DNA of 64,000 nucleotides from an uncultured Candidatus Saccharibacteria bacterium (GCA_964631935.1 CAZWAV010000001.1:291595-355594), one strand, 5' to 3'. Shown: positions 14,047 through 31,690, counted from the stretch's first letter. Notes: a model not told the origin generated them from the sequence alone. Numbers and translations are program-made.

Positions 14047-14062
14047 AAGGGCTTAAGCCCTT
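14047..14062 (-). terminator. Perfect palindrome aagggctt/aagccctt downstream of the surface-operon SBP gene and upstream of gyrB
   Basis: 16-nt perfect inverted repeat with a U-rich tract on the minus strand. Confidence 0.35.
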
Positions 14063-14097: not shown

Positions 14098-15201
14098 CTA
14101 ACCTTGAATGTCTTTTATCTTTTCTTTGATGTCTTGCTCAAGATCTTTAACATGATTTAACTCGTCCATAAGCCCAGCGCTTGTACTCTCAAGCTCAGCT
14201 ATTTCTTCTTTGAGTTCGCTAACTGCATTTGTCTTTCTACTATATCTAAATGGAAAGTATCCACTTCTTCTTCGTAAAGAAAAAATTACCACCAAGATAA
14301 TAATACCCAATAATAAATATATTATAATCGTATTCATATTTTCTAATATATATGAGATGAATGGATTTTTGTTTGTCTTTTCATTCGGTAAGACAACCCA
14401 TTTGTCATTTAGAATTTTGCGATCATTAGTGCTTATTTGCTGTAAGCCTTTATCTAATATTGATTGTAATATCTCTTTATCTTTTGGTACAGCGAAAGAT
14501 AGTTTATATTCAAAACCAGTACTTCCTACAACTTTCACACTATTTAGGACTTGCTTAGAAAGATAGTAAGACAGAGATGTAATATCCATAATGGCCGCAT
14601 CAACTTCACCGAGCACTACTTGCTGGAGACCTGACTCATCGTCTATGACTGACTCAATAACAACCCTTGGATTATTTGTACGTACAAATCCTTCAACTGC
14701 ATAATCTTTGCCTATCGCTACTTTTTTGCCAGAAAGGTCGCCTAGGGTCACAGTATTCCCTTCATCTAGATCTTTACGGACGACAATAACCGCAGGGCTA
14801 GTAACATAATTATCCGAGAAATATAAAATATCTTCCCTTTCTTTTGTGCTCGCCAGAGAACTAATAATATCTCCTTTTTTGTTTTGTCTGACATCGTCAA
14901 GTATCTGAGATAGCGGTCGAGCAGGTAGGTACTCAATTTTCGCTCCTATTTTCTTTGCAATTAATTCAATATAATCAATAGATAGACCTTGTGGTGCACC
15001 GGATGAATTTTGATAAGAGTATGGCGGAAAATTTTTCTCAGGATATACAACAATAGTATTATTGCGAGATTTAAGCCACAAATTCTCTTGTGGATTTAGA
15101 ATGGTATTTTCAGCATTTCCAGTAAAAGGAATGGCTAATAAGAAAAAGAGTGCAAGTAAAGTATGGCCAAAAAGTCGCCTCATATCAGAATATTCTATCA
15201 T
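14098..15201 (-). CDS. Membrane-tethered solute-binding protein (SBP family 3, amino-acid-binding type) with C-terminal TM helix and coiled-coil tail
   Basis: 367 aa with an N-terminal signal peptide. The periplasmic-binding fold (IVVYPEKNFPPYSY..GLSIDYIELIAKKIG) is followed by a hydrophobic helix (IIIYLLLGIIILVVIFSL) and a charged coiled-coil (ELKEEIAELESTSAGLMDELNH). It is the last gene of the surface array. Confidence 0.65.
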   Translation of the reverse strand: MIEYSDMRRLFGHTLLALFFLLAIPFTGNAENTILNPQENLWLKSRNNTIVVYPEKNFPPYSYQNSSGAPQGLSIDYIELIAKKIGAKIEYLPARPLSQILDDVRQNKKGDIISSLASTKEREDILYFSDNYVTSPAVIVVRKDLDEGNTVTLGDLSGKKVAIGKDYAVEGFVRTNNPRVVIESVIDDESGLQQVVLGEVDAAIMDITSLSYYLSKQVLNSVKVVGSTGFEYKLSFAVPKDKEILQSILDKGLQQISTNDRKILNDKWVVLPNEKTNKNPFISYILENMNTIIIYLLLGIIILVVIFSLRRRSGYFPFRYSRKTNAVSELKEEIAELESTSAGLMDELNHVKDLEQDIKEKIKDIQG

Positions 15202-15203: not shown

Positions 15204-16319
15204 TTAATACTTTTTTTCAGCATCAAACACCGCTTGTTTATCGTCGGCCATAGCCTTATCTTGGCGTTCCAATTTATGTTGAGTTAGTTCAATCTCCTCT
15301 TCCTCTAATCCCATTTTTCTCTTCATAATTCTCATGCGTCTTGATGAATACCAAGGTATAAAGTAGACAATCATAGCAAGGCCAACAATAGGTATGAGTA
15401 GTATTAATATATTTATAAACACGATGAGGCCTTTGATAATTTTACTATCATTAACAAATAGTTGGACTCCGAGACCTGGCTTATCTGTATTAGTGTCGCT
15501 ATCTACAAGAAAGGGAGTTGCATTATAAACTCCGGCTACTAAATTGTTTGGTGTAGTATATTCAAACAATCCTTTTTCATTATTCTTTACTAAGACATCA
15601 GAAAGTCTTTTCTTTTTTGATTGGATGAAATCCATAAACTGTTCACCAAATGATTTATGAGAAACATCTTCAAAAGAAATTTTAGTTAAAGCATCCGGTT
15701 CCCCTTTACCTTTTAGATAAACTTTATCTTTAGAATTAACAGCAGGAGAATAATCTGTGATGACAGGCAGGGCTAATGTCTTTTTTGTATTTGATTGAGC
15801 AATTGGTTTATTGGTAATTAAATCTAGAGCTCCAGACCCTAAAATATTAAAGCTCGTAGGATTTAGGCTAGCTATTATATTAGTACCTAATCCATCATTA
15901 GCAAGAAGTGCCCCGTCTGAAAATGACACTGTAGCAAATCCTCTTTTCTTAGCTTGAAAAGTAACATGGAAAATAGTCCCCTTTTCACCTTGATATCCAG
16001 GATTAAGTATGACACCTTCAAATGAAATTTTGTTACGTTGAATTAGTGGATCACGAGTCCAAATGTTTAAAATACTATTATCTCTTGAGATAGATATTGT
16101 TTTTAGTAAATCTTCTGGGAATGTCAGTGTACCTGAGACTGCATTGATAGCTTGGTTTGGAGATCCTACTTTGACGTCAATTGTTATAGACTCACCTTCA
16201 CTTACGCTAACAGAGGACTTTGTTATAAAAAGAGAAGCAGATGAAGCATAGGTAGTGGTAGTACTACATAAAATTGTTATTAAAACACTATAGACTATAG
16301 CTTTTATGTAATATTTCAT
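15204..16319 (-). CDS. Type-I membrane protein with N-terminal cohesin-like beta-sandwich domain
   Basis: Start chosen at internal MKYYIK, which gives a 4-nt overlap with the upstream stop. Signal peptide is present, then a cohesin-like pattern (ITIDVKVGSP.QAINAVSGTLTFPEDLL...ISFEGVIL...IFHVTFQAKKRGFATVSFSDGALLANDG), a C-terminal TM helix and a charged cytoplasmic tail. It is a paralog of the next gene. Confidence 0.55.
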   Translation of the reverse strand: MKYYIKAIVYSVLITILCSTTTTYASSASLFITKSSVSVSEGESITIDVKVGSPNQAINAVSGTLTFPEDLLKTISISRDNSILNIWTRDPLIQRNKISFEGVILNPGYQGEKGTIFHVTFQAKKRGFATVSFSDGALLANDGLGTNIIASLNPTSFNILGSGALDLITNKPIAQSNTKKTLALPVITDYSPAVNSKDKVYLKGKGEPDALTKISFEDVSHKSFGEQFMDFIQSKKKRLSDVLVKNNEKGLFEYTTPNNLVAGVYNATPFLVDSDTNTDKPGLGVQLFVNDSKIIKGLIVFINILILLIPIVGLAMIVYFIPWYSSRRMRIMKRKMGLEEEEIELTQHKLERQDKAMADDKQAVFDAEKKY

Positions 16320-17194
16320 CTTCTTCTTTTTACCACAAAAAATATAAAGTAACAAGCTCCACATAGAATTATTATTATAAATAACTGCAAACTAGACAAT
16401 ATTCCAGGTATTTCTATTTCGGCTTGTTGTGCATTACCATAGAAATCAAGAGCTCGTATCGTGAGTGTCGTTTTCACTAATCCTTTTGAAGTAGGTAGCG
16501 GACTTGTAACATCTTTCCATGAATTATTTCCTTGGTGCATTTGGTATTTTTCTACGCCAGAACTTTTGTCTGTAGTCATGAAAATAACCATAGATGGTGT
16601 TCTTGAGAAAAGACCTTCTTCGATATATTCTATGGTGAACGGTTCAGGTGGTTCTGTGTCTTTGATTTCAGTTTTATCTATAGGTAAATCATTAGGTAAT
16701 ATTGTGATTTGGGTATTATTATTCTGATGCAGAAGAGGAGCACCTAACCCATCATTCTTTAGAATTAGAGAATCAGTTATTACAAATTTTGCATCTCCAG
16801 GTTTTTCAGCTAGGAAAAGTAATTGAATTATGGGTACTGGTTGCAATCCTTCCTTGTCTGGGTCATAAAGACCATCTATGCCTCCAGGTATAATCCCGCT
16901 AAAATGTATCAATCCACCTGATTCAACAGGAGTTACTAACCATAATTTTTTTATAGAACCTTCTTCTTTGTAACCTTTAAATGTTAATAAATCTTTAGGG
17001 TAAGACATAGTTATATCTACAGAATTTATCGGCACACCATCTGTATCTAAATTAACAGATATAGAAAAAGTCTTTCCTGTATTTAAGTTATCAGGTGCGA
17101 CAATAGACAAGTCGGCAGCAATAGCCATAGACTTGTAACTAAAAAATATTATTATGATGAGTAGAAATTTTTTCATAAATATTAACCAGTCCAA
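16316..17194 (-). CDS. Type-I membrane protein with cohesin-like domain (paralog)
   Basis: 292 aa. Signal peptide, cohesin-like segment (FSISVNLDTDGVPINSVDITMSYPKDLLTF...IHFSGIIPGG...LLFLAEKPGDAKFVITDSLILKNDG) and a C-terminal TM helix followed by KRRR. Confidence 0.55.
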   Translation of the reverse strand: MDWLIFMKKFLLIIIIFFSYKSMAIAADLSIVAPDNLNTGKTFSISVNLDTDGVPINSVDITMSYPKDLLTFKGYKEEGSIKKLWLVTPVESGGLIHFSGIIPGGIDGLYDPDKEGLQPVPIIQLLFLAEKPGDAKFVITDSLILKNDGLGAPLLHQNNNTQITILPNDLPIDKTEIKDTEPPEPFTIEYIEEGLFSRTPSMVIFMTTDKSSGVEKYQMHQGNNSWKDVTSPLPTSKGLVKTTLTIRALDFYGNAQQAEIEIPGILSSLQLFIIIILCGACYFIFFVVKRRR

Positions 17195-18063
17195 TAAAAA
17201 GCGAGAATCGAGAAGTCGACAAGGTTGATAATATTGTCATTATTTGTATCTATGCAAGCAGGTGAATTTGATTTACCGTACCAAAAAGCCATAACTGAAA
17301 AATCAACTAAATTAATGACCTGATCGGCATTACAATCTCCTGGTATATTTGTAATTAGATCAATACTAGGTATATTCAAATCTCCAACTGTAAAACTGAC
17401 AACTTTACTAATTCTTTTGTCATCTTTATAATTTACATGTAAATTATAATTCCCTTTTTGTAGATCTAGTAGCGGTATAGTGATTTGATATACACCATCT
17501 GTATTGCTTGTAAGACTAAAGTCCTTATCTTGTAATCCATAAATAGAAAGGTCTATTTTTTGGTTTGGCTGAGCATATCCAGATACTGTTATATAATCAC
17601 CAAATTTAACTTCTGTTTTATCTATTGAAATAGTTGGCGCGAAACGAATACCAGAAACTTGTGTCATGTACCCAGTTTTTATAACAATGGGATAGTTTAA
17701 AAGCAATGACCTTCTGTTTAATTTATCAAAAGCATAGAGTGTGTAGAGTGCATTAGGACTATATACCTCACCTAATGTAATCGTAAAATATCCACTATTG
17801 TCAGCTGTAGTTGTTGTCTTAGGAGTACCATCTTTCCACACATGAACAACAGCCTGGGGATAAGCATAGCCTGAAAAAGTTAAGCTCGTGAGGGAACCAC
17901 TACCACCTCCATTATCTGTCGTTGGTGTAGAAGTTGTTGCTCCTACAGTAGCAGACACATTTACTAATGCTGTATCGATAATATCTGTCGCAAAAACTAT
18001 TTGCGTATTAAGCACAAACAATATCAAACATATGAGTATGTTGAAATATTTTTTACTATACAT
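17182..18063 (-). CDS. Secreted protein with two Ig/carboxypeptidase-regulatory-like beta domains and a C-terminal type-I dockerin module
   Basis: 293 aa. The C-terminus has two canonical Ca-binding loops DxNxDxxIxxxD followed by helices (DCNADQVINLVDFSVMAFWYG and DTNNDNIINLVDFSILAFYWTG). It overlaps both neighbours, indicating translational coupling. Confidence 0.7.
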   Translation of the reverse strand: MYSKKYFNILICLILFVLNTQIVFATDIIDTALVNVSATVGATTSTPTTDNGGGSGSLTSLTFSGYAYPQAVVHVWKDGTPKTTTTADNSGYFTITLGEVYSPNALYTLYAFDKLNRRSLLLNYPIVIKTGYMTQVSGIRFAPTISIDKTEVKFGDYITVSGYAQPNQKIDLSIYGLQDKDFSLTSNTDGVYQITIPLLDLQKGNYNLHVNYKDDKRISKVVSFTVGDLNIPSIDLITNIPGDCNADQVINLVDFSVMAFWYGKSNSPACIDTNNDNIINLVDFSILAFYWTG

Positions 18064-19087
18064 GGTTGGCTTCGTTTTGTGTATTGTTCATACCAACACG
18101 AGCCTTTTGTATAATATGTCTATTGTATCGTCGTATAAGCTTTCTTCCTCCCCAAAATACGATTATAAATATAACAAGAAGACATATGAGTAGCTGCCAT
18201 GGGAACACAAAGAAGAATGCTGTTTTACTAACACGCGTAGCATTTGTTCCGTACAAAAGGCTCATCTTTGCAAAATAAGGGCCGAAAGCAAAGTTGTGCC
18301 ATTCATAAAGTGCTTGATTAAAAAATTGATTAATCTTTCCAGTAGGGGCAACATAATCTTTGTCTCGCGGATTTTTCACCCAGTCTACAGTAAAATGACG
18401 AGTGCTATTGGGTAAAATGTTACCCGATCCAGGGTTTGCATCTATTTTATCTTCAGGAATATATACTATGTCATGCATAGTAATTTTACCGACAGGTTTG
18501 ATACGATCTCCCCCATCGTTTTTGAAGCGATACTCAAAAGATACAGGCAATGTTGTATACCAAGTTTTATGATTTAGAGTAGAAAAAGATACTAAGCCAC
18601 CAGCTTCTTTTACATCGCCTGACACAGACAAAAGTACTAACATTCCAATTTTTGCACCAATAGAAACAGAAGATGCCCCTGTAACATTTGGAGTTGTCCC
18701 CCAAAAGACTGCAGCAAAATGACCCCCTGCTTCAGCGGTATTGGGAATATTTATACTAACTGGAACAATAATACTTTGTCCGGGTTTTAGAGCTACTGAT
18801 GTTTCAGTAGACATCCATTTATCAAGATCATCTTTGGATTCAGTGAATGCTGGATTGCCTGTTTCCCCTTGAGCTTCAAAGTTTGCAAATGATGAGTAGA
18901 AAATTTGAGTATTCTTCGTATCGTTTGTGAGTGTCATATCCTGCTTTACCGTCTCACCAGGATTCCCTTGTAACTCAACACGAGGAGGAGAAATAGATAG
19001 AGCATCCACCCTAAAAGGCCCTAGCAAAAGAACACCCGATATGATCGCAATCTGTAGAAGTATGCTTTTTGCAATTCGAGTGTTCAT
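18056..19087 (-). CDS. Secreted beta-rich protein with C-terminal TM anchor (DUF916-like architecture)
   Basis: 343 aa. Signal peptide, then LSISPPRVELQGNPGETVKQDMTLTNDTKNTQIFYSS, which resembles the N-terminus of DUF916/DUF3324 cell-surface proteins. A C-terminal hydrophobic helix is followed by a basic tail (RKLIRRYNRH). Confidence 0.45.
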   Translation of the reverse strand: MNTRIAKSILLQIAIISGVLLLGPFRVDALSISPPRVELQGNPGETVKQDMTLTNDTKNTQIFYSSFANFEAQGETGNPAFTESKDDLDKWMSTETSVALKPGQSIIVPVSINIPNTAEAGGHFAAVFWGTTPNVTGASSVSIGAKIGMLVLLSVSGDVKEAGGLVSFSTLNHKTWYTTLPVSFEYRFKNDGGDRIKPVGKITMHDIVYIPEDKIDANPGSGNILPNSTRHFTVDWVKNPRDKDYVAPTGKINQFFNQALYEWHNFAFGPYFAKMSLLYGTNATRVSKTAFFFVFPWQLLICLLVIFIIVFWGGRKLIRRYNRHIIQKARVGMNNTQNEANHV

Positions 19088-19108: not shown

Positions 19109-20224
19109 TTAGTATGTAGCAGTAGCGACGTACGTATGACTTGCAGTATATGTACCAGCTTCAGTCACAGGAGCAATGTTTGCCATGTAGCGAACAGAGT
19201 ATGTTGTGGTTGCTGATGGAGTAGTAGAAGAAGCAACTTGAGCAGGAGTTGATGCTGTTCCAGTGTATGCATAACCTGCTGCTGCGTATGGTGCAGTTAC
19301 TGAACCAGAACCTCCAGATGCAGTAAGTCTTATACCAAATTGTTCTGTACCAGGAGAAGATGCTGTGTTAGAAGCTAGAGCTGTTATAGTATTTGCTCCA
19401 GAAGTGAGAGTTGCGCCTTGGACAGTTATAATATATCCAGATGTTGCATTTGTTCCAGCTGTCATATTGAAAGCTTCTGTTTCTGCTGTTGTTGGACATG
19501 TTACAGCTCCAGGATCAGTACCTTGAGCGAAACATATACCTGCTGTACGAAGATTACCGTAGAATATTGTATTGTCAGATATCGTAAATGAAATAGTAGG
19601 CTGAACAAGAGCATTAACTACCACAACATCGTCAGCAATTATTGGAATACCTATTGTACCTGTATCACCAAAAGCTCCAGATATAGCAAGCAATGTTGTT
19701 CCAGCTCCCCCATTTGTTATTTGGAAAGTACCAGTTCCACCTGTTGTGGCATTTGTTCCTATTCTAATTGTTATCACAGAGCCAGCAGCGATAGCTGTAC
19801 CTGAAGTCTGAGAATCAAATGTTATGACAGTTGAAGATGTTCTCACTACCTTATAAGTAGACGCTCCTGCAGTTCCGGCGAGAGTTATAGGAGCACCGTC
19901 ATCTTCTAGGTCAATATCAGCAAATGTAAGTCCTACTGGAATACTTGTTGAGTTATCAAAAGTTAGAACTATTGCACCAACAGTACTATTGGCTACACCT
20001 GTAGGAGTAGTAAATACTATAGTATGGTTGGCTACAGTTGATGCTTTTTCAGCATTAAATGCACCTGTAGCAGGTGAGAGTGTATCTTTGAGAGCTGTAA
20101 GAGCGGCAGCATTAGCGACCTTTATCACTTGTGGAGCAAATGATGTAAACATAACGAGGGTAATTATAACCAGGGCACTTGTTATCTTTGAAAACGAGGA
20201 TTTTTTCATTCTTAATATCTTCAT
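19109..20224 (-). CDS. Secreted Thr/Ser/Gly/Ala-rich beta-strand protein with a conserved C-terminal domain (paralog A)
   Basis: 371 aa. Signal peptide (..VANAAAL). Low-complexity TGT/GAT-rich body. The C-terminal ~140 aa are shared with the next gene (PTISFTISDN..FYGNL, EQFGIRLTASGGSGSVTAPYAAAGYA, TTYSVRYMANIAPVTEAGTYTASHTYVATATY). No Trp, so it is not a WxL domain. Confidence 0.6.
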   Translation of the reverse strand: MKILRMKKSSFSKITSALVIITLVMFTSFAPQVIKVANAAALTALKDTLSPATGAFNAEKASTVANHTIVFTTPTGVANSTVGAIVLTFDNSTSIPVGLTFADIDLEDDGAPITLAGTAGASTYKVVRTSSTVITFDSQTSGTAIAAGSVITIRIGTNATTGGTGTFQITNGGAGTTLLAISGAFGDTGTIGIPIIADDVVVVNALVQPTISFTISDNTIFYGNLRTAGICFAQGTDPGAVTCPTTAETEAFNMTAGTNATSGYIITVQGATLTSGANTITALASNTASSPGTEQFGIRLTASGGSGSVTAPYAAAGYAYTGTASTPAQVASSTTPSATTTYSVRYMANIAPVTEAGTYTASHTYVATATY

Positions 20225-20330
20225 AATAAATTGCTAATAATTGATAATTGTATACATACTACTTTATGTGTTTATTTTAACATATTTAATAGGTAAAAGA
20301 TACGAAAATAATCACTCTGTGGATAACTTA

Positions 20331-21347
20331 CTAGAAGGTTCCTGTAACTATATAAGTGAGCATTGAAGTATATGTACCAGCAGCAGTGGTCGGGCTAATA
20401 TTACCTAAATACCTAACGGAATAAGTCGTTGTAGTGCCATCCCCTGCACCACTTGCTACCTGACTCGGGAACCCTGCTGTATCAAGAGCAAAACCAGATG
20501 CAGCATAAGGGGCAGTTACCGAACCAGAACCAGTTGCTACCATGCGTAAACCGAATTGCTTTGTTCCTATGCTTGGAGCTGTGTTTGTGTTTCCTATTGC
20601 TGTAATAGTATTTACTCCAGAGGTTAAAGTATTACCACTAACAGTTACGACATAACCACTTGTAGCATTTGTACTCGCAGAAATAGTATGAGCTTGGACT
20701 TCTGTAGCACTACCTGTACTAGTATCGGCATAACGCGACGCGCTAGAAGAAAGTGATCCGAAATTCACTGAATTTGTAGAAATAGAGAAACTAATAGAAG
20801 GAGTGAAAACTTTAGCACAAGCCTTTATTGTATAAGCACTACCATCACCCACATGTGCATTGTCTATTGATGACATTGAAAAAAGAGTCGTGTCATAACC
20901 GGTGCAGTTCGTGTTTTGATAACCAGTAGTTATTATATCTCCAAAAGTTGTATCCGAAAGACAGACATTTGTACCATATGTATTTACACTACTCTGCTGT
21001 GTTGTGCCATTGGTTGAGCCTGAAATACGAGCAATACTTTTAAAATTACCAGAGCAAGAATTTCCTATAGCAGAAGCGCTCGAGCAACAAACTACATTAC
21101 TTGCGTAATTTGCATTTGATTGACTTGGTAATTCAGTGTGAGCGTTAGTAGAACCAGACATACGTAGGAGAACAACAGAGCCACCAGTACAAGCCGCCGC
21201 TGTAGTAACAGAGCAAGAAAGCGCCGCATATATTGTAGATATGGGATAGAAAAATAGAGCTGATAGTACTACGATAAGTAAGTACTTAGAAACTCTTGTC
21301 TTTGATTGGATCTGATGTAGTCTCAGGTGGTGTAGTATTTTGATCAT
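20331..21347 (-). CDS. Secreted Thr/Ser/Gly-rich, Cys-containing beta-strand protein with the same conserved C-terminal domain (paralog B)
   Basis: 338 aa. Signal peptide, then a Cys-rich N-terminal half (about 12 Cys). The C-terminal block KQFGLRMVATGSGSVTAPYAASGFA...TTTYSVRYLGNISPTTAAGTYTSMLTYIVTGTF is colinear with paralog A. The 62-nt overlap with the upstream gene suggests the start may be downstream or non-ATG. Confidence 0.6.
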   Translation of the reverse strand: MIKILHHLRLHQIQSKTRVSKYLLIVVLSALFFYPISTIYAALSCSVTTAAACTGGSVVLLRMSGSTNAHTELPSQSNANYASNVVCCSSASAIGNSCSGNFKSIARISGSTNGTTQQSSVNTYGTNVCLSDTTFGDIITTGYQNTNCTGYDTTLFSMSSIDNAHVGDGSAYTIKACAKVFTPSISFSISTNSVNFGSLSSSASRYADTSTGSATEVQAHTISASTNATSGYVVTVSGNTLTSGVNTITAIGNTNTAPSIGTKQFGLRMVATGSGSVTAPYAASGFALDTAGFPSQVASGAGDGTTTTYSVRYLGNISPTTAAGTYTSMLTYIVTGTF

Positions 21348-21750
21348 TTGTAGGATTACTTATAGGCGCAGTTTCTATAATTTTATCTATACTAGGACGA
21401 TAAAGCACTGCGCGCCCTGCTTTACTAAAAATAAGAACCTTATCCCCTTTTTGAGATTGAGTAAAAAAAGATTGATTCTTGAGCGCTGTTGGATCAGAAA
21501 CAGTTGCGATAGTTGGTTCTTCACCAGTGGGTATCAAATATAATCTTGCAACTTTACCAAGTAAGTCTTTTGCTTCTTGTTTACTTTTATCATTTACAGC
21601 TATGTCTTTTTGTATGGTATGTAGTTTGTAATAGAAATACCCACTCAAACAAAGAGCAATGACTACAATTATCATCATAACAAGATTTATAAATTTTTGT
21701 TTAGTCATTGGAATTTTTAGTTTAGTTGTATCTATGTCTATAGATGTCAT
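21286..21750 (-). CDS. Small single-pass membrane protein
   Basis: 154 aa. N-terminal TM helix (LVMMIIVVIALCLSGYFYY), a periplasmic domain and a Pro/Thr-rich C-terminus. It lies between the giant gene and the TS-rich paralogs. Confidence 0.45.
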   Translation of the reverse strand: MTSIDIDTTKLKIPMTKQKFINLVMMIIVVIALCLSGYFYYKLHTIQKDIAVNDKSKQEAKDLLGKVARLYLIPTGEEPTIATVSDPTALKNQSFFTQSQKGDKVLIFSKAGRAVLYRPSIDKIIETAPISNPTNDQNTTPPETTSDPIKDKSF

Positions 21751-21816: not shown

Positions 21817-24800
21817 TTATAGATATTTTCTGAAAATACTGAGACCAAAAGGTTCTGAAAATACGAGCATCCTTTTTATTTTATATAAAAATCCTATATC
21901 ACCACCAGAACCTCCGCCGCCTCCGCCTCCGCCAGTAGTAGGACAATTGCTATTAAACACCACAGAAGGAACAGTAGTATAGTTTGACCCACCATTATCT
22001 ACTGTCACGCTTGATACTGCGTCACCGGTCAAAACTGCTGTGCCTAAAGCACCTGACCCTCCGCCTCCACAGAATAATACCGTTGGAACAGATGTATAAC
22101 CACTACCACCAGAATTTATAGTTACACTCTGTACAATATTTGAAGAGACTACTGCTGTAGCGATTGCTGTAGTAGCTCCACCTCCACCAGAACCTCCGCC
22201 ACCGCCACCGCCTTGATCTCCATCTGGAGTAGCTGAAGATTCTATATTTCCACCACCACCACTTTTAGTGATAGTAATGAAAGACCAACACACGCCATTA
22301 TTACCATAATCATATATATTAGTACTCGCTCCTACAGTATTACCACCACTACATCCAGAATCTTTTACTTTTAAATAAGATATGGAGCTGGAGCCTGACA
22401 GTGTCATCAACCATTGAGAAGTCGGGGTGTCAGAATTTATTGAAATAGGATTTCCTTCAATTCCAGTCAAGGTTAATGTGTTTGCAAAAGTATAAGTATT
22501 ACCAGCTTTAAACTGCAAAGTTGAACCAGCCGTGGTGTTTGTTAGATTATAAAAAGTAGTATTTGAACTGCCTAAAATATTTGCAGTTAATGTAGAGTTA
22601 GTTGGTACAAAAGTTACCGTACCATTACTGTGTGTAAATGTGCCGCTATTACTAAAATCTCCATTAATGGTTAGACTTGTTGGTGCTACAAAAGTACCAT
22701 CTGAAATAGTTAAGTTTCCACCAATTGTCGTTACGCCAGTTAGGGTCAGGGTCCCGAGGCCAGCCTTAGTAAGTCCGCCAGCTGAGCCGACAGTACCAGC
22801 GATACTTACACTATTTCCATTTGTATCAATTGTGCCATTTCCAGTGAGTGTAACTGCACGAGTAGAAAGAGAGGTGATCGTTCCTGATGCCTGCAGAGTA
22901 CCACCGTTGAAAATTAGGGTATTAGTAGAAGTTCCATCACCAAGTGCAGCTGTAGCGTTGGCGACAATTGTTCCTCCAAGTATCATAGTAGGTCTACTGT
23001 AAGTGTTGGCTCCAGAGAGCGTCAGTGTGCCCGCCCCATCCTTAGTGAGGTTACCACTGGTAGTACTTATGATACCGGTGACCGATGTACTTCCAGCACC
23101 ACCAAAGATAGCGTTGAATGTATTTCCAGACATTGTTGGAAATGTTAGTGTTCCAGAATCAGAATTAATACGGACATTTGTTGTACCGAGTGTAACGTTT
23201 GCACTAATTGTATTCGAGTCAGCAACATTTCTAATCGCACCAGTATTATTAACACCAGTACCATTAGCTGTTATAAGTTTTGTGCTTGGTAAAGTAATAT
23301 TATTTTGTAATTCTAGTGTCGCCCCACCAGAAATAGTCGTAGTCAGTGAAGTTCCAGAAGCACCCAATGCGTTACTATGTTGAAGATTTAAATAGCCGGC
23401 GTTTAAAGCAATAGAGGTGCTCGTAAAACTATTGTCACCCGAGAGAATAACCCGACCAGCGGTATTTTTCGCCATTCCACCAGCTAACGCACTCCCTAGT
23501 ACTGCACTAATCGTCCCTTTTTCAAGAATGAATTGTTGTGTCGATGTAAGTGTTGCCGCTCCGCCAGTACTTACAATTGAGCCATCAATTAATGTAACCG
23601 TCGAAATATTTGTTTCATTAAATCCTTTTAAATCCAAGGTTCCACCAGCCACGCTTACAGTTGGCGTAGAGAGTGCATCAGCTATACCGTACGCAAGTGT
23701 CCCCTCGTTAATGCGCACTCCACCGGAAGCACCTGTGTTAGCGGCAGTGAGTGTAAGGGTACCCGCACCATATTTAGTTAACACTATACCAGCAGTACCC
23801 ATATTACCAGAGATAGTTGTCGGACCAGATCCGCCAACCCAAAAAGATGAAGCCCCAGAAACAGCGCCTGTAATTGTCAGTACCCCAGCTCCATTATTCA
23901 CAATACGGGAACTTGTTTGAGAAAGAGTAGCAAACGTACTACCTGTGGAAGAGTTACTAATCAATGCTCCCCCATTCAAAAGACCACTACCAGCGAGCGT
24001 CAAAGGCTCCCATGTCGAAGCTCCTCCAACACTATAAGTAGATAGGTCGAGCACTGCCCCAGCAGAAACAGTAACACCTCCAGCAATTGTACCAAAAGGG
24101 GTGTTCGTAGCGCCGCCGTTTGCTCCAAGCTGGAGTGTCCCTGTACTCACCGTCATTGCGCCAGTCATGGTGTTTTGCCCAGCCAAAATAAGAGTCCCCG
24201 AACCTTCTTTTGTGAGAGTACCAGAACCTGACCACACACTGTTTGTAGATTGAGTAAAATTACCCACCGCCACCACGGTAAGTGCGAAGTTCCCCGAAAT
24301 ATTACCAGTCAACGTCGTCATTCCAGTACCATGGTTAGCAATACGTGAAGCAGCACCTAGGGTGACAGCTCCAGTATATGATATTGAATTATTAGAACTA
24401 TTTATAAATGCACCTGTGTTTGCAATACCACTTCCGTTAATCGTGATGGGCTCAGCAGTACCAAGAGTAAAGCCATTCAAATCCAACATCGCACTACTTG
24501 CAACAGTGGTCGCTCCAGCAGTTGTGCCGAGTGGTGTGTTGGTTGCTCCACCGGCTGCGCCCAATCTTAGTAATCCGAAACTAACAGTGGTTACTCCAGT
24601 ATAGTTACTATCTCCCCAGATCTCCCATGTCCCTGCATCATTTTTAACAAGTGATCCCGCAGTTGATGTATTGACTTGAGTTTTAAGGACGCCATTTCCA
24701 AGACCTCTCAGTGTCAAAGCAAATCCAGTCCCTGTCATGCTTCCCGTGTTTGAAAGAGTCATAGTGCCATAGTTAGCAGTGATGGTCGCAGCCGCACCAA

Positions 24801-27800
24801 GAGTAATGAGCCCACTGTATGTGACGGCTGTTGATGATGTGTTCATGAGAGCCCCTTTCCCACCAACACCAGTACCACTAATAGTGAGTGCTTCAGCTGT
24901 ACCTAAGGTAAATCCATTTAGGTCAAGAGAGAATCCGCTTGCAACAGTAGTACCTGCAGCAGTTGTACCTAGTGGTGTATTGGTTGCTCCACCAGCAGCA
25001 CCCAGTCTTATCGTACCAGCACTAATTGTAGTTAATCCTGTATACGTATTACTACCAGCTAGTTCCAATACTCCAGCACCAGCTTTTCCAAAAGTAAATC
25101 CGCCACTTATCACTGCAGATATAACTGCGTCATTATCCATAAGTCCGTCACCAATAGTAAACGTTGCATTAGCTCCAAGACCCAAATTCCCTGTTATTAT
25201 TGAAGCAACATTGTTATTGGCAATCGTGGTAAATGTTCCATTGCCAGTAAGAGTACCTGCACCAGTAGCGATACTACCAGCGTTAATAGTAATGGTACCA
25301 ACCGTGTCAGAGTTGGCATTAAGGTTATACATACCTCCTACTATTGTTACCCCTCCACTAGAAATAACATTGCTTGCGCCAGCGGTAAGTGTTGCATTAT
25401 TAATAAATGTCGTACTTGTATAAAGGTTAGCAGCGCTAAGTGTGACATTGCCAGACCCACTTAATACAACTGACCCTGTTGTAGCCGTACCAATTACGGC
25501 AGAAATAGTTGAAGTATTTGTTGCTAAAATATCTAATTCAAGTGCACCAATACCGAGTGTTGTGTTTGCTCCAGCAATATTTGTGGCTGAGTTTATTAAA
25601 ATATTTCCTGCTAAAGAAGCCTGGGAAATCGTAATAGTAGCTGCACTTCCCGGGTTCGTTATAGCAAAACCGTTAAGTATAAGAGAGTTAATACTCACCG
25701 TACTTGCCGTAGTGTCAGCTGAGAGCTTTACGTTTGTATTTGTTGTTAGACTTGTAGAATATTCACCAGAGAAACCAGCACCATTGAGTAATCGAAGACC
25801 ATTGGTATTACCAAGGCTGTAAGTTACCATATCAGTACCTGTTCCACTTAAAGAATTGTCTCCAAAAGCACCTTTGATGACGCTTGCAGTAGTACTGTTG
25901 GCTGCTCCGGCAGCACCGGTCAATAAACCAGTTGAGGTAGTAAACATTAAAGTAGAAACATTGGCAGCAGGAGTAGAACCAAAGCTTGTACCACGGAAAA
26001 GTATCGTCGCTCCAGCGGTACGAGAGAAGGATGCGAAAGTCATCGTCGTTGATCCGCCAGCGCCAGGAGTGATGGTGACGACACTATGACCAGACGAAGG
26101 GGCAAGTGCACCTGTTGTTTCAGAAGAAGCCCCAGAAGCATTACCAATGAAGTTAAAGTTACCACCGTTGAGAGTTAGAGCGAGCGCATCACCAAGACGA
26201 CTTGCAACAGCTGTAGCACTATTATCTAGAGTTAATGTACCGCCTAAGTTTACTGTAATTGTAGTACTTACAGCTGAGCCTGATCCACTCAAAGTGAGTG
26301 TCCCCGCATTGATTGCTGTCCCACTACTAATAGTATTTGCGCCTGTCAACGTAACCGTATTGTTCGTATTTTTTGCGACTGGAATTGCTCCAGCCAAAAC
26401 TGCGCTAATTGTTCCACTTTCCAATGTATAGGAAGCTGCAGCGGTGAGTGTACCGTTTTGAATTGTTCCACCAACAAGAGTGACTGAACCGATAGTATCA
26501 GTACTTGCAGCCATATCAAATATTCCCCCAGCCACTGTTAAGTTTGTAGCTGCCAGCACCGTGACGTTACTCCCGTAAGCAAACGTCCCCGCATCAACTC
26601 TCGTTGCACCAGTATACGTCTCCGTCCCTGTTAGTGTCAGTGTACCGGAACCCTGCTTTGTTACCGTACCGGCACCAATACCAATAACACCAGTACTAAA
26701 CGCGATATTACTTGTCCCACTAAGATAGAGTGCAAAGGCCCCCGATGCTCCACCGGTGAATGTTACGAGTCCTGATCCAGAGTTTGCAATACGAGTGTCA
26801 GTCGCTTGAGTGATCGCACCACTATACGTGAGTGCACCACCGGAATTAACGATGGCTCCCCCATCACTTATTCCCCGTCCGTTCGTTGTTAGTGGTTCGG
26901 CAGCAGTCAATGTAAAGCCGTTCAAATCGAGTACTGCCCCACTCAGCACAGAAGTAGCTCCAGCAATAACACCAAGCGGGGTGTTTGTCGTACTCCCTGT
27001 CGCACCCATCTTAAGCGTTCCAACGTTAATACTCGTCGCGCCGGTAAAGGTACTCGCGCCAGAGAGTGTCCATGTTCCAGCACCAATCTTAGTAAGTGTT
27101 CCTCCAGTAGTACCGATGATACTAGAGAGTGTTCCGTTACCTGTTCCTCCTAATACTAGCCCGGTATTGGCTCCTGTTATAGTACCTGCAGCTGTTAGAT
27201 TAATAGTCCCTGAATCCGCCTTGATAGTAGTCGCAGAACCAAGTGTAATTAATCCACTATATGTCACAGTTGAACCAGAACTATTCATTAATGCGCCACT
27301 TGCAAAATCGCCGAGTCCGTAGCCGACACCGTTTAGTGTCAGTGGCTCCGCTATTCCAAGGCTGTATCCATTGAGATCAAGTCGTGCACCAGTAGCTACG
27401 GTTGTGATACCTGCAGTTGTACCAAGAGGTGAGTTTGTCCCACCAACAGAGACTGCACCAAGTTTTACAGTACCAACACTGATAGTAGTTGCCCCCGTAT
27501 ATGATGAGTTACCATTTGAAAGGGTAAGTGTACCTATTCCATCTTTAGTTAAAGTACTCGTACCAGACCTTACTCCTGAATACGTAATATCACTAAATCC
27601 TCCGAAGGTTAGTGCAAAGTTTCCAGATATATCACTACTGATTGTCATCGTCCCAGCATCAGCATTGATACGTGCTGCGGCGGTAAGTGTCAGAGCACCG
27701 CTGTACGTTGCAGGTGAAGCTGAACTATTCATGATTGCACCCATATTACTACCACCTGAAGCACCAAAACCTGTTCCAGCTAAAGATGTTATTGCTTCAG

Positions 27801-30800
27801 CCGTACCAAGAGTGTAGCCATTTAGATCTAATGCTCCTCCATTTGCAATAGTTGTTCCAGTACCAGTCGTACCCAGTGGTGTATTGGTTCCGCCCCCGGT
27901 TCCTCCAAGTTTTAAAATACCACTAGTGATAGTAGTTACTCCAGTGTAAGTATTGTCGCGAGTAAGAGTGACAACACTATCAGCTGCTGCACTTGTCGCA
28001 ATGCGTGTTACAGTAGCAGCTCCACCACCTAAGATTGCGCTAACTGTACCTTCACGTAAACTATAAGAAGTTCCAGAGAGTATTCCTGACGTTCCAGTTA
28101 TGGTTCCATTTTGCAACGTAACTGCTCCAACCGTATCAGAATTGCCAGCAATATCTAATGTTCCCCCTACTACCGTAACTCCCCCACTCGAAAGTACATT
28201 GCTTGCACCATATGTCAGTGTTGCATTATTGACTGCTGTTAAACCAGTAAAAGCGTTCGCCGCAGAAAGGGTGATATTCCCCGATCCACTGAGCGTTAGT
28301 GAGCCTGCTACGGCAGTTCCAATGACAGCAGAAATCGTTGAGTTTGCGGTTGCTAAAATATCAAGTTCGTTGGTTGTAATACCAATAGTGGTACTAGCCC
28401 CTGCGATATTATTTGCAGAGTTTATTAAAATATTTCCTGCCAGTGACGCTGATGCCATCGTGATAGTCGCACTTGCGTTTGTGATATCGTAGCCATTCAA
28501 TATGAGCGAGTTAATACTCACCGTACTTGCTGCAGTATCAGCGATGAGCTTTACGTTTGTATTTGTTGTTAACGTAGAAGAATACTCTCCAGAAAAACCA
28601 GTACTATTAAGTAATCGTAATCCGTTAGTGTTCCCTACGTTATACGTCACCATGTCAGTACCTGTACCACTCAAAGAGTTATCACCGAAGGCACCTTTGA
28701 TGACACTGATTGTTGAGGAGTTGGCTGCTCCGGCAGCACCAGTGAGTGTTGGAGCAGTTGTAAATAGTACAGTAGACACATTGGCGGCAGGAGGCGAACC
28801 AAGACTTGTACCCCTGAACAATACTGTCGCACCAGCAGTACGAGAAAGACTCGCAAACGTCATCGTCGTTGATCCTCCAGCGCCAGGAGTAACCGTGACG
28901 ACATTGTGACCAGACGCGGGAGTAAGGGCACCGGCTGTTTCGTATGCAGTACCAGAAGTGTTACCGATGAAGTTAAAGTTACCGCCGTTCATCGTGAGAG
29001 CTGCTGTATCACTAATACGGTTGAGAATTGTTGTGGATGTATTATCAAGTGTCAGAGTTCCACCACTACCTATCGTAATAGTCGAATTCGGTATAGCCCC
29101 CGCACTATTAAGTACAATCTCTCCTCGACTAAGGTTGGTAGCCCCCGTAAAGTTACTGAACCCTTCCATGGTTAATACTCCAGTATCATTTTTTGTGAGC
29201 GTCGCAGTAGTACCGTAGATAGGTGCAGTCTCCGTAAATGTTACGTTACCTGCACCACCGACAACAAGCCCTAAAGTTGTTGCTGATAAGCCTTTACTAT
29301 CAATAGTTAGCGTAGTACCCGTATCAGACTCAATCATATTTGCAGTACCACTAATTGTCAGCAGACCAGTTATAGTGTTGTCCCCAGTCATATTACGAAT
29401 TGCTCCAGTGTAGAGATGTCCTGTTCCAGAAAAGGTTATGTATTCAGGGACAGAGAGACCGCTCCCATCGATTTGTAGTGTCGCGCCGGAAGTTACCGTA
29501 GTGACACCATCGATAAGACCGAGGGCTGTACTGTCTTGAATTTTCAAGATACCAGCAGCAACACTAGTGTTACCAGTATAAAGATTTGGGCGTGTCAGAG
29601 TTACTGTTCCTAGAGTATTTTTGGTCAACGACGATCCGTCACCAGCGATAATAGCGCTGATTGTCCCTGCGTTGAGTGTCCAACTGACGGCTGATAGCAC
29701 CCCTGTAGTACCGGTGATTGTACCACTGGATAAATCAGTTGTACCGAGAGTTACCGTTCCTCCGAGCATGTCAGAGTACGAGGCGATATCAAGTGTGCCA
29801 GCATTAACAGTAACACTACTCGAAAGAAGAGCGTTATCAATACCATATAGAAGAATTCCTGCATTTATGAATGTTGTCCCAGTATAGGTATTGGGGAAAT
29901 TGTATTTGAGTGTACCAGAACCATTTTTGGTAACGGTACCAGAACCAATACCAATAGGTGCTGTTGTGTACGTGATATCGCCTGCACCATCAATGACAAG
30001 AGGAAATGCACCGCTCATACCGCCAGTAATGGTAAGTGTGCCTGAGTCTGAATCTATTTCAGCACCACCCGCAATCATAGTAATCAGTCCCCCAAATGTA
30101 TTGTTGTCACTAACGTTACGCAATGCGCCCCCATTAGAAACACCATAACCACGCAATGCCAATGCTTCATACCCGATGTTTATAGTCCCCTGTAACTCTA
30201 GCGCTGCACCACCGACAACTTCAGTACCATTAGTGGTAGACCCGTTAGTACCGAGCGCTCTATCGTTTTGAGCATTAACGACACCGACGTTAATTTTTAA
30301 AACTCCACCAAATGTATTTGCCCCAGAGAGCACGAGCTCCCCTGTTCCTTCTTTGTTGATACCACCAACACCTGCGATTCTCCCACTGATCGTCAATGTC
30401 TCTGCAGTATTGGTCACGACAATATCTCGAGTGACATCGAGACGAATATCTAATGCAATTGTATTTCCTCCGGATGCTACACTATCGGTGATTCCAGCAA
30501 GACCTGCTCCGAGTATAATCGGATTACCAGAAAGAGTATAACCACTCCCCGAAAAGGTAATAGAGTTGAAAATTGTGTTTTCAATAAAATCGTTGGTATT
30601 GGAAAGATTTGAAGCACCGTTTGGAAATACAAGATCGTCTCCTGTAACAGGAGCAGTGCCACCACTCCAGTTGCTCCCAACAGACCATGCAGTACTCGTT
30701 GTACCAGTCCAGGTTCTTGTTGCAGCTTCCGCTCTGTTTACATTCAGAGACAAGGAAAAAGCGATAGCAAAAAAGATTGCGAAAATTCGTATTGGATTTG

Positions 30801-31669: not shown

Positions 31670-31690
31670 TTAGCCAAGTGATTTTATTTT
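31653..31690. terminator. Bidirectional rho-independent terminator between convergent genes (aaaatcacttggctaa/ttagccaagtgatttt)
   Basis: Perfect 16-bp inverted repeat at 31655-31686 with A/T runs on both sides. It sits exactly between the stop of the Hsp20-fusion gene and the stop of the beta-lactamase-like gene. Confidence 0.6.

Follow-up and report, generated by a model that had tools for sequence, protein, structure and literature searches.

Two adjacent secreted proteins of a Paceibacteria-like CPR bacterium share a Pam pilin C-terminal domain and are encoded in a probable Pam-type pilus operon

Two adjacent genes of a Paceibacteria-like CPR bacterium encode secreted proteins that share a genuine C-terminal domain, a domain that already bears a name, and the locus is probably a Pam-type pilus operon. 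Bacteria of the CPR/Patescibacteria make up a large and mostly uncultured share of the bacteria; they are attached to host cells, and attachment organelles are central to their lifestyle. The two proteins (P1 and P2) and their relevant parts are located as follows in the window, i.e. the whole stretch of 64,000 nucleotides that was analysed.

19109-20224, minus strand: P1, ORF of 371 aa
19112-19600, minus strand: P1 C-terminal domain, residues 209-371; truncated-Ig acceptor domain according to the model, with the conserved pair C231/C243
19601-19636, minus strand: P1 inter-domain linker, residues 197-208, DDVVVVNALVQP; candidate donor strand
20331-21347, minus strand: P2, ORF of 338 aa
20334-20801, minus strand: P2 C-terminal domain, residues 183-338, from the BLASTP alignment and an NCBIfam match at residues 191-338

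When P1 and P2 were compared by BLASTP, the alignment was confined to their C-terminal parts (P1 209-371, P2 183-338), with 54% identity and 71% positives (E 4e-43, composition-based statistics). The Smith-Waterman score of these parts was 406, against 66 +/- 10 in 300 composition-preserving shuffles (z=34.8), whereas the N-terminal parts scored at chance against shuffles of the same kind (z=-0.2); the C-terminal likeness is therefore not compositional. The initial annotation had described adjacent genes with a common C-terminal domain and divergent N-termini, and had named beforehand a purely compositional similarity as an outcome that would speak against it; the description holds, and all the motifs that it quoted were found in P1 and P2. 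As it had also stated, Trp is absent from both proteins and the last residue is aromatic in each, Y in P1 (...TATY) and F in P2 (...TGTF). Some of its details had to be corrected: the shared module is ~160 aa long by alignment and not ~140 aa; the Cys residues of P2 number 8, all in the N-terminal half, and not ~12; and P1, described as Cys-free, is so in its N-terminal half only, since C231 and C243 sit in the shared domain. Both proteins start with a hydrophobic N-terminus followed by A-x-A sites, as is typical of a Sec signal peptide. An HMM scan of the whole window detected no gene with the shared domain besides P1 and P2. P1 has at least 937 homologues, and across 863 clusters (proteins of 146-3243 aa) the domain is always found at the extreme C-terminus.

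The identity of the domain is given by NCBIfam NF058581.1 (CPR_Pam_pilin_C, Pam pilus system pilin subunit), which has a curated cut-off of 55 bits and was matched by P1 with 96.3 bits and by P2 with 76 bits; 29 of 29 diverse homologous C-terminal domains also scored above the cut-off. The domain can thus no longer be called unassigned, nor its family undescribed, as had been thought, while the suggestion that the proteins are pilin-like fibre subunits is supported. A confident match to a known family in a different genomic context had been set down as an outcome that would refute the idea of an undescribed family; such a match was indeed obtained, but the context proved to be the expected one. 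The PamT model NF058579 (an equivalog for a tip pilin with one domain and ~241 aa, expected to score >240 bits) gave 55 bits for P1 and 32 bits for P2 and covered the C-terminal domain alone, and neither protein qualifies as PamT. In the window there is neither a PamT-like protein made up solely of the C-terminal domain nor a PamR-like protein that itself bears a transmembrane helix. Pfam returned no family (SCPU, fimbrial and WxL included) for P1, P2 or 55 homologues, and SCPU/Csu, fimbrial or WxL assignments are therefore without sequence support. Searches of PDB sequences with P1, with a full-length profile (A1) and with a profile of diverse C-terminal domains (A7) gave nothing meaningful, the PDB set evidently being without PamA and PamB.

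First described in 2026 (bioRxiv 10.64898/2026.03.03.709456), the Pam pilus is a thread-like fibre on the surface of ultra-small CPR bacteria. According to this preprint, cryo-EM shows a donor-strand-exchange filament; filaments are formed by the founding members, and the assembly pathway is predicted, not demonstrated. PamA and PamB, whose solved structures are PDB 25PZ/25QA, consist of an N-terminal beta-sandwich, a single linker strand and a truncated Ig C-terminal domain. [quoted passage not shown] The system was reported in the same preprint mainly from Saccharimonadia and Microgenomatia, with no mention of WxLIP/DUF916, cohesin or dockerin.

P1 corresponds to a two-domain Pam-type pilin and would be the major shaft subunit. 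Its AF2 model (pLDDT 90) comprises an N-terminal beta-sandwich at 45-196 (9-10 strands), a low-confidence hinge or linker (197-210) and 6-7 strands in the C-terminal domain, a two-domain architecture that fits the published description of PamA and PamB. The linker is disordered in the monomer model. Among 71 shaft-type pilins it is conserved at 2.98 bits per position, equal to the core of the C-terminal domain, with V in 96%, A in 89% and V in 97% of them; in 69 first-gene proteins, i.e. those in the position of P2, the linker is unconserved (0.92 bits per position), whereas the A-strand is conserved equally in both groups. Within the cassette, a conserved V-x-V-x-A-x-V strand is confined to the inter-domain linker of the ~360-aa pilin and the mature N-terminus of a dockerin-containing protein, here N293. 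The motif was counted in 59 of 71 shaft linkers, in 48 of 63 N-termini of the N293 family, where it lies just past the signal peptide (background 0.005 per motif window), and in 2 of 71 first-gene proteins; in two families of anchor proteins (N292 and N386, see below) it occurred in 0 of 51 and 1 of 41, respectively. The 7-residue core motif separates the N293 N-termini from the background, whereas an 11-mer PSSM with a D-D-Q prefix does not. Judged by their sequences, P1 and P2 are not equivalent paralogues, as the conserved inter-domain donor-like strand is present in P1 only.

P2 has an N-terminal signal peptide and an N-terminal domain with 8 Cys, all of which are 100% conserved in 25 homologues. 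Its C-terminal domain starts with the A-strand PSISFSISTN and finishes with ...TYIVTGTF, and the donor-like motif is absent from the region before it. The slot that P2 occupies accommodates very different proteins: the N-terminal regions of first-gene products fall into at least four unrelated classes, in proteins 300-2253 aa long. P2 may therefore be viewed as a putative tip or adhesin subunit that donates no strand. Some gene callers choose M63 as the start of P2 (276 aa); the 338-aa protein is the conserved form and includes the signal peptide and two conserved Cys. The true start codon lies somewhere within 21290-21347.

Downstream of P1 and P2, the following features complete the unit.

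18056-19087, minus strand: N343, 343 aa; signal peptide, two Ig-like beta-sandwich domains, C-terminal transmembrane helix
17182-18063, minus strand: N293, 293 aa; signal peptide, donor-like strand, Gly-rich spacer, Big_6 Ig domains, C-terminal dockerin
17944-17964, minus strand: donor-like strand VNVSATV of N293, residues 34-40
17200-17343, minus strand: dockerin of N293, residues 241-288
16316-17194, minus strand: N292, 292 aa; signal peptide, cohesin-like domain, Ig-like domain, C-terminal transmembrane helix (hydropathy)
15204-16364, minus strand: N386, 386 aa, paralogue of N292; cohesin-like and Ig-like domains, C-terminal transmembrane helix, charged tail
14098-15201, minus strand: SBP_bac_3 gene, the last gene before the hairpin
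14047-14062, minus strand: terminator-like hairpin, AAGGGCTTAAGCCCTT followed by a T-run, after the SBP_bac_3 gene

The genes from 21347 down to 14098 overlap or are separated by gaps of at most 106 nt, and the hairpin at 14047-14062 likely marks the 3' end of the transcription unit, as read from the sequence. A promoter scan was uninformative (48 sites against 50 expected). The gene order is fixed in 79 CPR genomes: a variable protein with the C-terminal domain, the ~360-aa pilin, the chaperone-like gene, the Ig+dockerin protein and two membrane-anchored cohesin-like proteins, N292 and N386 here, whose positions are conserved. The P2-type gene comes first in the 79 loci and its slot is the one that holds variable N-terminal domains; exactly two genes with the C-terminal domain are present in 61 of the 79, and an N343-like gene directly follows the pilin genes in 78. 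P1 homologues occur in 154 species genomes with CPR names, save a few bins named ‘uncultured Gammaproteobacteria’ (L050, L052 and L071), which are probably mislabelled. No sortase or usher gene is found in the cassette. Giant surface proteins are encoded upstream, a PATR-repeat protein at this locus and a Peptidase_S74 protein in locus L007. Other ORFs of the window that were scanned encode SecDF, LemA, NDH-2 and others, and the flanking genes scanned (part of the ORFs within 15 kb) include no ATP synthase genes.

N343 had been pointed out as a DUF916-like, membrane-anchored neighbour and a possible polymerisation or anchoring partner of the two proteins. The first statement is borne out by a sub-threshold DUF916 signal, a WxLIP fold and the transmembrane helix, and N343 is indeed the likely assembly partner. 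The AF2 model (pLDDT 84) has two beta-sandwich domains and the C-terminal transmembrane helix. In Foldseek searches its best matches were the E. faecium WxLIP structures 9i1y/9i25 (E 1e-12), of which 9i25 is a WxLIP-WxL complex, followed by the chaperones CfaA, CsuC, DraB, EcpB and FimC (E 1e-9 to 1e-6). At the sequence level, PF06030/DUF916 (WxLIP_PGBD) scored 15 bits against a cut-off of 27 and was sub-threshold in 38 of 48 N343 homologues (best E 5e-5), PF11797 (DUF3324) was not matched by N343, and no NCBIfam model matched it either. By hhalign, the N343 family aligned with WxLIPs at E 3e-4 over 119 columns, and EfmWxLIP1 was the only PDB sequence touched by the N343 profile. A PapD/FimC-like protein with a C-terminal transmembrane helix that adjoins pilins is what a Pam chaperone would look like, and on its model N343 is a putative membrane-anchored chaperone analogous to PamC and PamD. 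The models and profiles thereby link the Pam chaperone to the WxLIP of Gram-positive pathogens and commensals.

The remaining genes encode candidate components of the pilus base. In the N293 family, Pfam detects Big_6 in 29 of 31 proteins and Dockerin_1 in 27 of 31 (best E 1.6e-11), the family profile matches PDB dockerins (E 4e-6), and the duplicated Ca-binding F-hand segment expected of a dockerin is present at the C-terminus; N293 itself scores 19.6 bits with Dockerin PF00404 (E 1e-3), just below the cut-off of 22.9. It differs from a PamR-like terminator in ending in a dockerin, with no transmembrane helix, and is a putative pilus terminator and adaptor. N292 and N386 are paralogous (hhalign A3 vs A5, E 7e-44). 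Pfam Cohesin is matched in 3 of 31 members of the N292 family, which also matches PDB cohesins at E 2e-3, the signal being weak for N292 itself; of 31 members of the N386 family, 9 match Cohesin and 23 match Big_13. N292 is the predicted membrane anchor of the dockerin protein.

In donor-strand exchange, the groove of an incomplete Ig-like domain is filled by a beta-strand of the next subunit, and the genes that are conserved beside the pilin genes hint at how this form of Pam may be built and tethered to the cell. All the proteins would be exported via Sec. N343 would remain in the membrane, its conserved V-S-I-G-A-K segment capping the groove of new subunits. P2, with its disulfide-rich N-terminal domain, would accept a strand and donate none, which would place it at the tip as a host-binding subunit. 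P1 would polymerise head-to-tail through the linker strand D-D-V-V-V-V-N-A-L-V. N293, which has no acceptor domain, would plug the last P1 with the V-x-V-x-A-x-V strand of its mature N-terminus, and its C-terminal dockerin would bind the cohesin-like, membrane-anchored N292 and N386, so that the fibre is tethered to the cell. The roles of tip, shaft and terminator are proposed on the basis of the distribution of the V-x-V-x-A-x-V motif. The anchor possibly sets this cassette variant apart from the Pam system described.

Other readings of the locus were weighed. The genes could serve WxL-like surface display, with no fibre being formed: the C-terminal domain would be the CPR counterpart of the Firmicute WxL domain, a single inserted strand would let the membrane-anchored, WxLIP-like N343 keep it at the cell surface, and each locus would supply one short and one long or variable cargo. 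Much in N343 speaks for it: WxLIP, including the WxLIP-WxL complex, is the best structural match, the only PDB sequence reached by its profile is a WxLIP, DUF916 is repeatedly found below threshold, and its length of 343 aa lies in the range published for WxLIPs (337-365 aa), whose order of domains it shares. The commonest WxL cluster (one WxLIP, a short WxL and a long WxL) has the layout of 61 of the 79 loci, and the last strand of the C-terminal domain, AG.Y...T.Y..T, resembles the terminal WxL motif. Nevertheless, this reading is unlikely, since no Pfam WxL match was obtained in 55 pilin homologues, the curated model matched is that of the Pam pilin, whose founding members are filamentous, and a display complex fails to explain why a conserved donor-like strand occurs in the shaft-type protein and N293 yet not in first-gene proteins. 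The initial view that the proteins are not WxL by sequence agrees with their lack of Trp and of a Pfam WxL match. The C-terminal domain was also compared with the WxL domain: hhalign against a WxL profile (alignment from plasmid loci and Lactococcus homologues) covered 12-15 columns only, at P 0.04-0.4, and because these represent the last strand alone, no homology is claimed between the two domains.

A scaffold of the cohesin-dockerin type, cellulosome-like or S-layer-like, with a C-terminal domain that binds the wall or the scaffold and does not polymerise, is a very unlikely alternative: neither a dockerin nor a cohesin signature is seen in P1 or P2, their C-terminal domain matches the Pam pilin model, and the cohesin matches of the pilin are those of a generic beta-sandwich, ranked under many Ig-like domains. 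There is still less room for another known class of pilin, whether sortase-linked Gram-positive, type IV or classical chaperone-usher/Csu (SCPU), given that P1 and P2 end at the last beta-strand with no LPXTG and no C-terminal anchor, that the cassette has no sortase or usher gene, and that Pfam matches, SCPU and fimbrial included, are absent. Type IV pilins had been discounted from the outset, rightly so, as neither a class III signal peptide nor a hydrophobic N-terminal pilin helix in the mature protein is found. The likeness of P1 and P2 might also reflect no more than composition rich in Thr/Ser/Gly/Ala, one or both ORFs not being genes, and T+S+G+A do amount to 50-52% of the residues in each protein; this idea deserves practically no credence and is already refuted by the shuffles (z=34.8), by an E value of 4e-43 with compositional adjustment, and by hundreds of conserved homologues in a conserved gene order. 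A Pam-type pilus operon is therefore the preferred reading.

The Pam pilus of Candidatus Mycosynbacter amalyticus is encoded by genes for the pilins PamA/PamB, the chaperones PamC/PamD, and PamT, PamE and PamR. Both systems have the C-terminal domain recognised by the curated HMM, a Sec signal peptide, a two-domain pilin, paired cysteines, two distinct subunits per operon that carry the C-terminal domain, and a membrane-anchored chaperone-like protein with two Ig domains; both are restricted to CPR bacteria and lack an usher, an ATPase and a sortase. Compared by description, the present cassette has one chaperone-like gene instead of two, no PamT, a first gene that puts a variable N-terminal domain on the C-terminal domain, and a dockerin protein with two cohesin-like transmembrane proteins in place of PamR. 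The neighbourhood reported for M. amalyticus includes ATP synthase genes, of which none was identified among the flanking genes scanned here, and the organism is Paceibacteria-like, outside the main published range of Saccharimonadia and Microgenomatia.

Similarities extend to other systems. The WxL clusters of Firmicutes comprise a short WxL protein, a long WxL protein and a WxLIP with DUF916/DUF3324 and a transmembrane helix (Hassan et al. 2023, PMC10599100). In structure, N343 is closest to WxLIP, with which it has in common the length class, the order of two Ig-like domains and the C-terminal transmembrane helix, and in both cases one such protein accompanies two with a common C-terminal domain, one of them long and variable N-terminally; the beta-sandwich of the partner is predicted to be completed by a strand of the anchored protein. 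On the other hand, the C-terminal domain here has no Trp, WxL motifs, Pfam WxL match or profile likeness past the last strand, the sequence signal in N343 is limited to the first (DUF916-like) domain, and WxL proteins are regarded as peptidoglycan-bound and not as forming filaments. With chaperone-usher pili (Pap/Fim, CFA/I, Csu), the locus would share an incomplete Ig-like subunit that receives a strand of the chaperone first and of its neighbour next, a two-domain tip adhesin with no donor strand (as FimH/PapG), and a terminator subunit. It differs from them in having no outer membrane and no usher, a membrane-anchored chaperone, no sequence similarity, and a candidate donor strand that is an internal inter-domain linker and not an N-terminal extension. 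As in cohesin-dockerin systems, a dockerin of the canonical kind, duplicated and Ca-binding, is carried by the N293 family, and the families of N292 and N386 have cohesin-like N-terminal domains and membrane anchors; unlike cellulosomes and non-cellulosomal pairs, there are no enzymes and no scaffoldin repeats here. We know of no description of a cohesin-dockerin joint that tethers the base of any pilus.

For the initial finding the outcome is sobering, in that its ‘unassigned’ domain already has a curated name; the link between the Pam chaperone and WxLIP, in turn, is absent from the preprint. The present locus shows the Pam pilus to reach beyond Saccharimonadia and Microgenomatia: its conserved six-gene form is found in 154 or more species-level genomes that bear names such as Paceibacteria and Parcubacteria or related ones. 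Testable roles follow from the comparison of these loci: a tip whose N-terminal domains (300-2,250 aa) can be swapped, a pilin for the shaft, a chaperone, a dockerin terminator and cohesin-like membrane anchors. More tentatively, Pam and the Firmicute WxL/WxLIP system may have branched from a single ancient machine of monoderms, with the Paceibacteria-type fibre closed by a donor-strand protein that lacks an acceptor domain and is fastened to the membrane by cohesin and dockerin; the shared parts may be a membrane-anchored, strand-donating protein with two Ig domains and subunits with an incomplete C-terminal beta-sandwich. This is a possible rather than a probable view and, if true, it would raise the question of whether the WxL proteins of Firmicutes polymerise.

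The two neighbouring open reading frames (ORFs) reported by the initial annotation are both found at exactly the coordinates given, on the minus strand, in a run of genes from 21347 down to 14098 that overlap or lie no more than 106 nt apart. The gene arrangement of the window, with low GC content (34–47%), is typical of CPR genomes.

Genes of the run and the hairpin that follows it
20331–21347, minus strand: P2, ORF of 338 aa, adjoining P1
19109–20224, minus strand: P1, ORF of 371 aa, adjoining P2
18056–19087, minus strand: N343, chaperone-like protein of 343 aa (AlphaFold model, pLDDT 84)
17182–18063, minus strand: N293, dockerin protein
16316–17194, minus strand: N292, cohesin-like protein
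15204–16364, minus strand: N386, cohesin-like protein
14047–14062: terminator-like hairpin, after the gene run 21347–14098

P1 and P2 align by BLASTP in their C-terminal parts alone (P1 209–371 with P2 183–338; 54% identity, 71% positives, E 4e-43), which score z=34.8 against 300 composition-preserving shuffles, whereas the N-terminal parts show no similarity above chance by the same procedure (z=−0.2). The likeness is therefore genuine and limited to the final ~160 residues (~140 in the initial annotation), and a resemblance of composition only is excluded; Thr, Ser, Gly and Ala make up 50–52% of each protein. Trp is absent from both and each ends in an aromatic residue, again as described, and the N-terminal half of P1 is indeed free of Cys (Cys 231 and Cys 243 lie within the shared domain); the ~12 Cys attributed to the N-terminal half of P2 are in fact eight, its full complement. 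The start of P2 varies between gene callers, the JGI and Logan records (L001/L002) beginning at M63 to give 276 aa against the 338-aa form, which is likewise present in database records. Only the longer call retains the signal peptide and all eight Cys, each 100% conserved among 25 homologues; the shorter one loses the peptide and two of these Cys. The long ORF and the upstream gene have 62 nt in common, so that translation of P2 may really begin a few codons in from the 338-aa start. The N-terminal regions of first-gene proteins, i.e. those at the position of P2, form four or more mutually unrelated classes, of which that of P2 is the commonest (25 members, with eight invariant Cys).

The shared domain was initially called unassigned; it has a curated name, since the Pam family and its principle have been known since 2026 and an NCBI model exists. 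A Pfam search matched P1 and P2 to no family; in NCBIfam release 20, P1 (96.3 bits) and P2 (76 bits) exceed the curated cut-off of 55 bits for NF058581.1 (‘CPR_Pam_pilin_C, Pam pilus system pilin subunit’), a model matched by 29/29 diverse homologous C-terminal domains. Both match the PamT equivalog NF058579 weakly, and within the shared domain only. The Pam pilus is a donor-strand-exchange fibre whose pilins, PamA and PamB, were identified when filaments of Ca. Mycosynbacter amalyticus, a CPR parasite, were studied by cryo-EM; the same study describes an operon that also encodes PamC/D (PapD/FimC-like chaperones with a membrane helix at the C-terminus), PamT (a tip pilin consisting of the C-terminal domain alone) and PamR (a membrane-anchored RbmA-like terminator with an additional N-terminal strand), and it offers a predicted assembly pathway (bioRxiv 10.64898/2026.03.03.709456). 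The AlphaFold2 model of P1 (pLDDT 90.2, 55-sequence alignment) comprises a signal helix, 9–10 strands in residues 45–196, a low-confidence hinge (197–210) and a C-terminal domain of 6–7 strands, which fits the published description of a Pam pilin. Its Foldseek relatives are generic Ig-like folds (MSCRAMM adhesins, FimH and PapG; E 1e-4 to 4e-3). As the structure libraries lack the PamA/B entries 25PZ and 25QA, what places P1 and P2 in the Pam pilin family is the curated HMM, together with the architecture.

In 71 shaft-type pilins, defined as the last C-terminal-domain gene ahead of the chaperone gene, the 13 inter-domain residues are conserved to the same degree as the strand that opens the C-terminal domain (2.98 against 3.23 bits per position) and have the consensus D-D-Q-V-x-V-x-A-x-V (V 96%, A 89%, V 97%). 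The equivalent stretch in 69 first-gene proteins is unconserved (0.92 bits; first C-terminal-domain strand, 3.22 bits). In P1 the linker (197–208) reads DDVVVVNALVQP and is precisely the segment disordered in the AlphaFold monomer, as expected if the partner of the strand is another subunit. The core motif of this candidate donor strand, [VIL]x[VIL][STAN]AxV (chance expectation 0.005 per window), was scored across the families; it appears as VVVNALV in P1 and VNVSATV in N293.

Occurrence of the core motif of the candidate donor strand
Shaft linkers: 59/71
First-gene proteins: 2/71
N293 family, residues 16–60: 48/63, straight after the signal peptide and ahead of a Gly-rich spacer
N292 family: 0/51
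N386 family: 1/41

N343 has a related segment, V141-S-I-G-A-K-I147, in which G144 and A145 are invariant, in a low-confidence region of its model. That model predicts a signal helix, two beta-sandwich domains (30–155 and 163–294) and a C-terminal transmembrane helix (297–335). Its top structural matches are the Enterococcus faecium WxLIP, free (9i1y) and bound to long WxL (9i25), at E 1e-12 and TM 0.55–0.58 on the target; RbmA and the chaperone-usher chaperones CfaA, CsuC, DraB, EcpB and FimC come next (E 1e-9 to 1e-6). By its predicted structure N343 is thus a membrane-anchored neighbour of the WxLIP/PapD fold, and it fits the description of PamC/D. Sequence evidence agrees with the structure but is weak: the family profile reached only EfmWxLIP1 among PDB sequences (E 0.3), Pfam WxLIP_PGBD (DUF916) was matched below threshold in 38/48 homologues (best E 5e-5), and hhalign aligned 119 columns of the first domain with four plasmid-borne WxLIPs (E 3e-4). 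The earlier description of a DUF916-like anchored neighbour is supported by these matches and by the C-terminal helix.

The same likeness gives force to the most serious alternative, namely that the locus encodes a WxL-like display complex without a filament, and the cluster layout is identical to that of the commonest WxL cluster, one WxLIP with a short and a long WxL protein (PMC10599100). The C-terminal domain, however, has no WxL motif, Pfam WxL is unmatched in 55 homologues, profile–profile similarity is nil except in the last strand, and the distribution of the donor motif would not be accounted for. That last strand (P1 356–371, P2 323–338; AGTYTASHTYVATATY) resembles the terminal WxL-motif strand of Firmicute WxL proteins (loci L010 and L011; AGDFSTTLEWDLVTAP), and similarly the strand ‘SGY(I/V)(I/V)TV’ is like GAGWKVTA, the first WxL motif, Tyr standing in place of Trp; in profile–profile comparison the likeness is not significant (P 0.04). 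That the Pam and WxL systems share an ancestry, and that the pilus has a cohesin–dockerin anchor, is a tentative idea that we consider rather doubtful. Pilins of the sortase, type IV and classical chaperone-usher kinds were also considered, and their defining features are not found in P1 and P2. The terms WxL, DUF916, cohesin and dockerin do not occur in the text of the Pam preprint (bioRxiv 10.64898/2026.03.03.709456).

The N293 family joins Ig domains to a canonical dockerin: Big_6 occurs in 29/31 and Pfam Dockerin_1 in 27/31 (best E 1.6e-11), with PDB dockerins matched at E 4e-6. N292 and N386 are paralogous (hhalign E 7e-44), and both have a cohesin-like domain at the N-terminus and a transmembrane helix at the C-terminus; Pfam Cohesin is found in 3/31 and 9/31 of their respective homologues, and PDB cohesins match at E 2e-3. 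These three genes (15204–18063, minus strand), a cohesin–dockerin set without attached enzymes, are kept directly downstream of the pilin and chaperone genes in most of 79 CPR genomes.

Homologues of P1 number at least 937, those with names belonging to Paceibacterota, Nomurabacteria, Parcubacteria or the ‘Patescibacteria group’. Among 1.84 billion cluster representatives, 863 have the C-terminal domain at E≤1e-3 (433 of these also at E≤1e-10), and it lies at the extreme C-terminus in all of the best 150 of the 863 (proteins of 146–3243 aa). With each species represented by a single genome, 154 genomes were found to encode a relative, and 79 loci were kept; their names include Paceibacteria, Nomura-, Taylor-, Harrison-, Kaiser-, Doudna-, Kerfeld- and Peribacteria, many automatic ‘uncultured Saccharibacteria’ labels and a few ‘Gammaproteobacteria’ bins. 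The contigs labelled ‘uncultured Gammaproteobacteria bacterium’ that have a complete cassette (L050, L052, L071) probably come from mislabelled or chimeric bins, and the numerous TPA labels ‘uncultured Candidatus Saccharibacteria’ may be no more reliable at class level. Across the 79 loci the cassette is conserved, on a single strand throughout and in near-invariant order.

Order of genes in the cassette
Gene 1: 300–2253 aa, Pam C-terminal domain at the end
Gene 2: P1-type pilin, ~360 aa, at times in two or three copies
Gene 3: N343-like
Gene 4: N293-like
Gene 5: N292-like
Gene 6: N386-like

Pilins are followed by the N343-like gene in 78/79 loci, and 61/79 have exactly two C-terminal-domain genes. 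In four loci with CPR2 and Doudnabacteria names (L041, L047, L055, L066), pilin and chaperone-like genes alternate, with two N343-like genes, and dockerin and cohesin genes are absent, a layout that suggests at least two cassette types in the family.

From these comparative data we infer roles for P1, P2, N343, N293, N292 and N386. P2 would be the tip subunit, a strand acceptor but never a donor, its disulfide-rich N-terminal domain being the part likely to bind the host. P1 would polymerise by each linker strand filling the groove of the subunit before it, grooves being capped at the membrane by N343 until exchange. N293, having a donor strand but no acceptor domain, would end the fibre, and its dockerin could hold the fibre at the membrane by binding N292 and N386, the cohesin-like anchors. 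The scheme is that of the Pam pilus, with two differences from M. amalyticus as the text of the preprint describes it: PamT would be replaced here by a two-domain adhesin-like tip and PamR by a split anchor joined by cohesin–dockerin.

Further genes of the window are also of note. Just upstream, a 154-aa protein (21286–21750, minus strand) with one N-terminal transmembrane segment gave no match in a family search; homologues precede the first pilin-domain gene in 9/79 related loci. Directly upstream of the pilus genes, a 3025-aa ORF (21817–30894, minus strand) has a Gly-rich C-terminal region and 10–12 autotransporter-type PATR/beta-strand repeats (Pfam E 5e-45; TIGR02601 E 6e-51) in a CPR cell that is presumably monoderm; the Pam C-terminal domain is absent from it. 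Giant surface proteins occupy its position in related genomes (4856 aa, Bact_surface_Ig-like; 2162 aa, Peptidase_S74, tail-fibre-like). A 2177-aa ORF (32684–39217, minus strand) has no Pfam family at E≤1e-3, and its 3' end overlaps by ~170 nt a 388-aa ORF (31690–32856, minus strand) with weak class A beta-lactamase/PBP-like similarity (81 bits, far under cut-offs). A further large surface or polysaccharide-acting protein is the secreted 1074-aa product of 49994–53218 (minus strand), with a Pel9A-like right-handed beta-helix and Big_7, PKD-like and Big_13 domains. At the other end, the gene at 14098–15201 (minus strand) specifies a solute-binding protein of the SBP_bac_3 family (E 7e-23), whose C-terminal transmembrane segment is unusual and which also has a coiled-coil tail; as the final gene ahead of the hairpin it probably shares a transcript with the pilus genes. 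Among the contigs compared, it takes this place only in the near-identical L001–L004 and is missing in L005 and L007.

The locus adds to the Pam family a member from a CPR class that the founding study covered sparsely. Beyond the preprint, sequence comparison points to the breadth and fixed order of a Paceibacteria-type cassette and to a candidate donor-strand motif restricted to the shaft pilin and the dockerin protein, and modelling to a predicted structural link between the chaperone and WxLIP; all three observations are worth follow-up.
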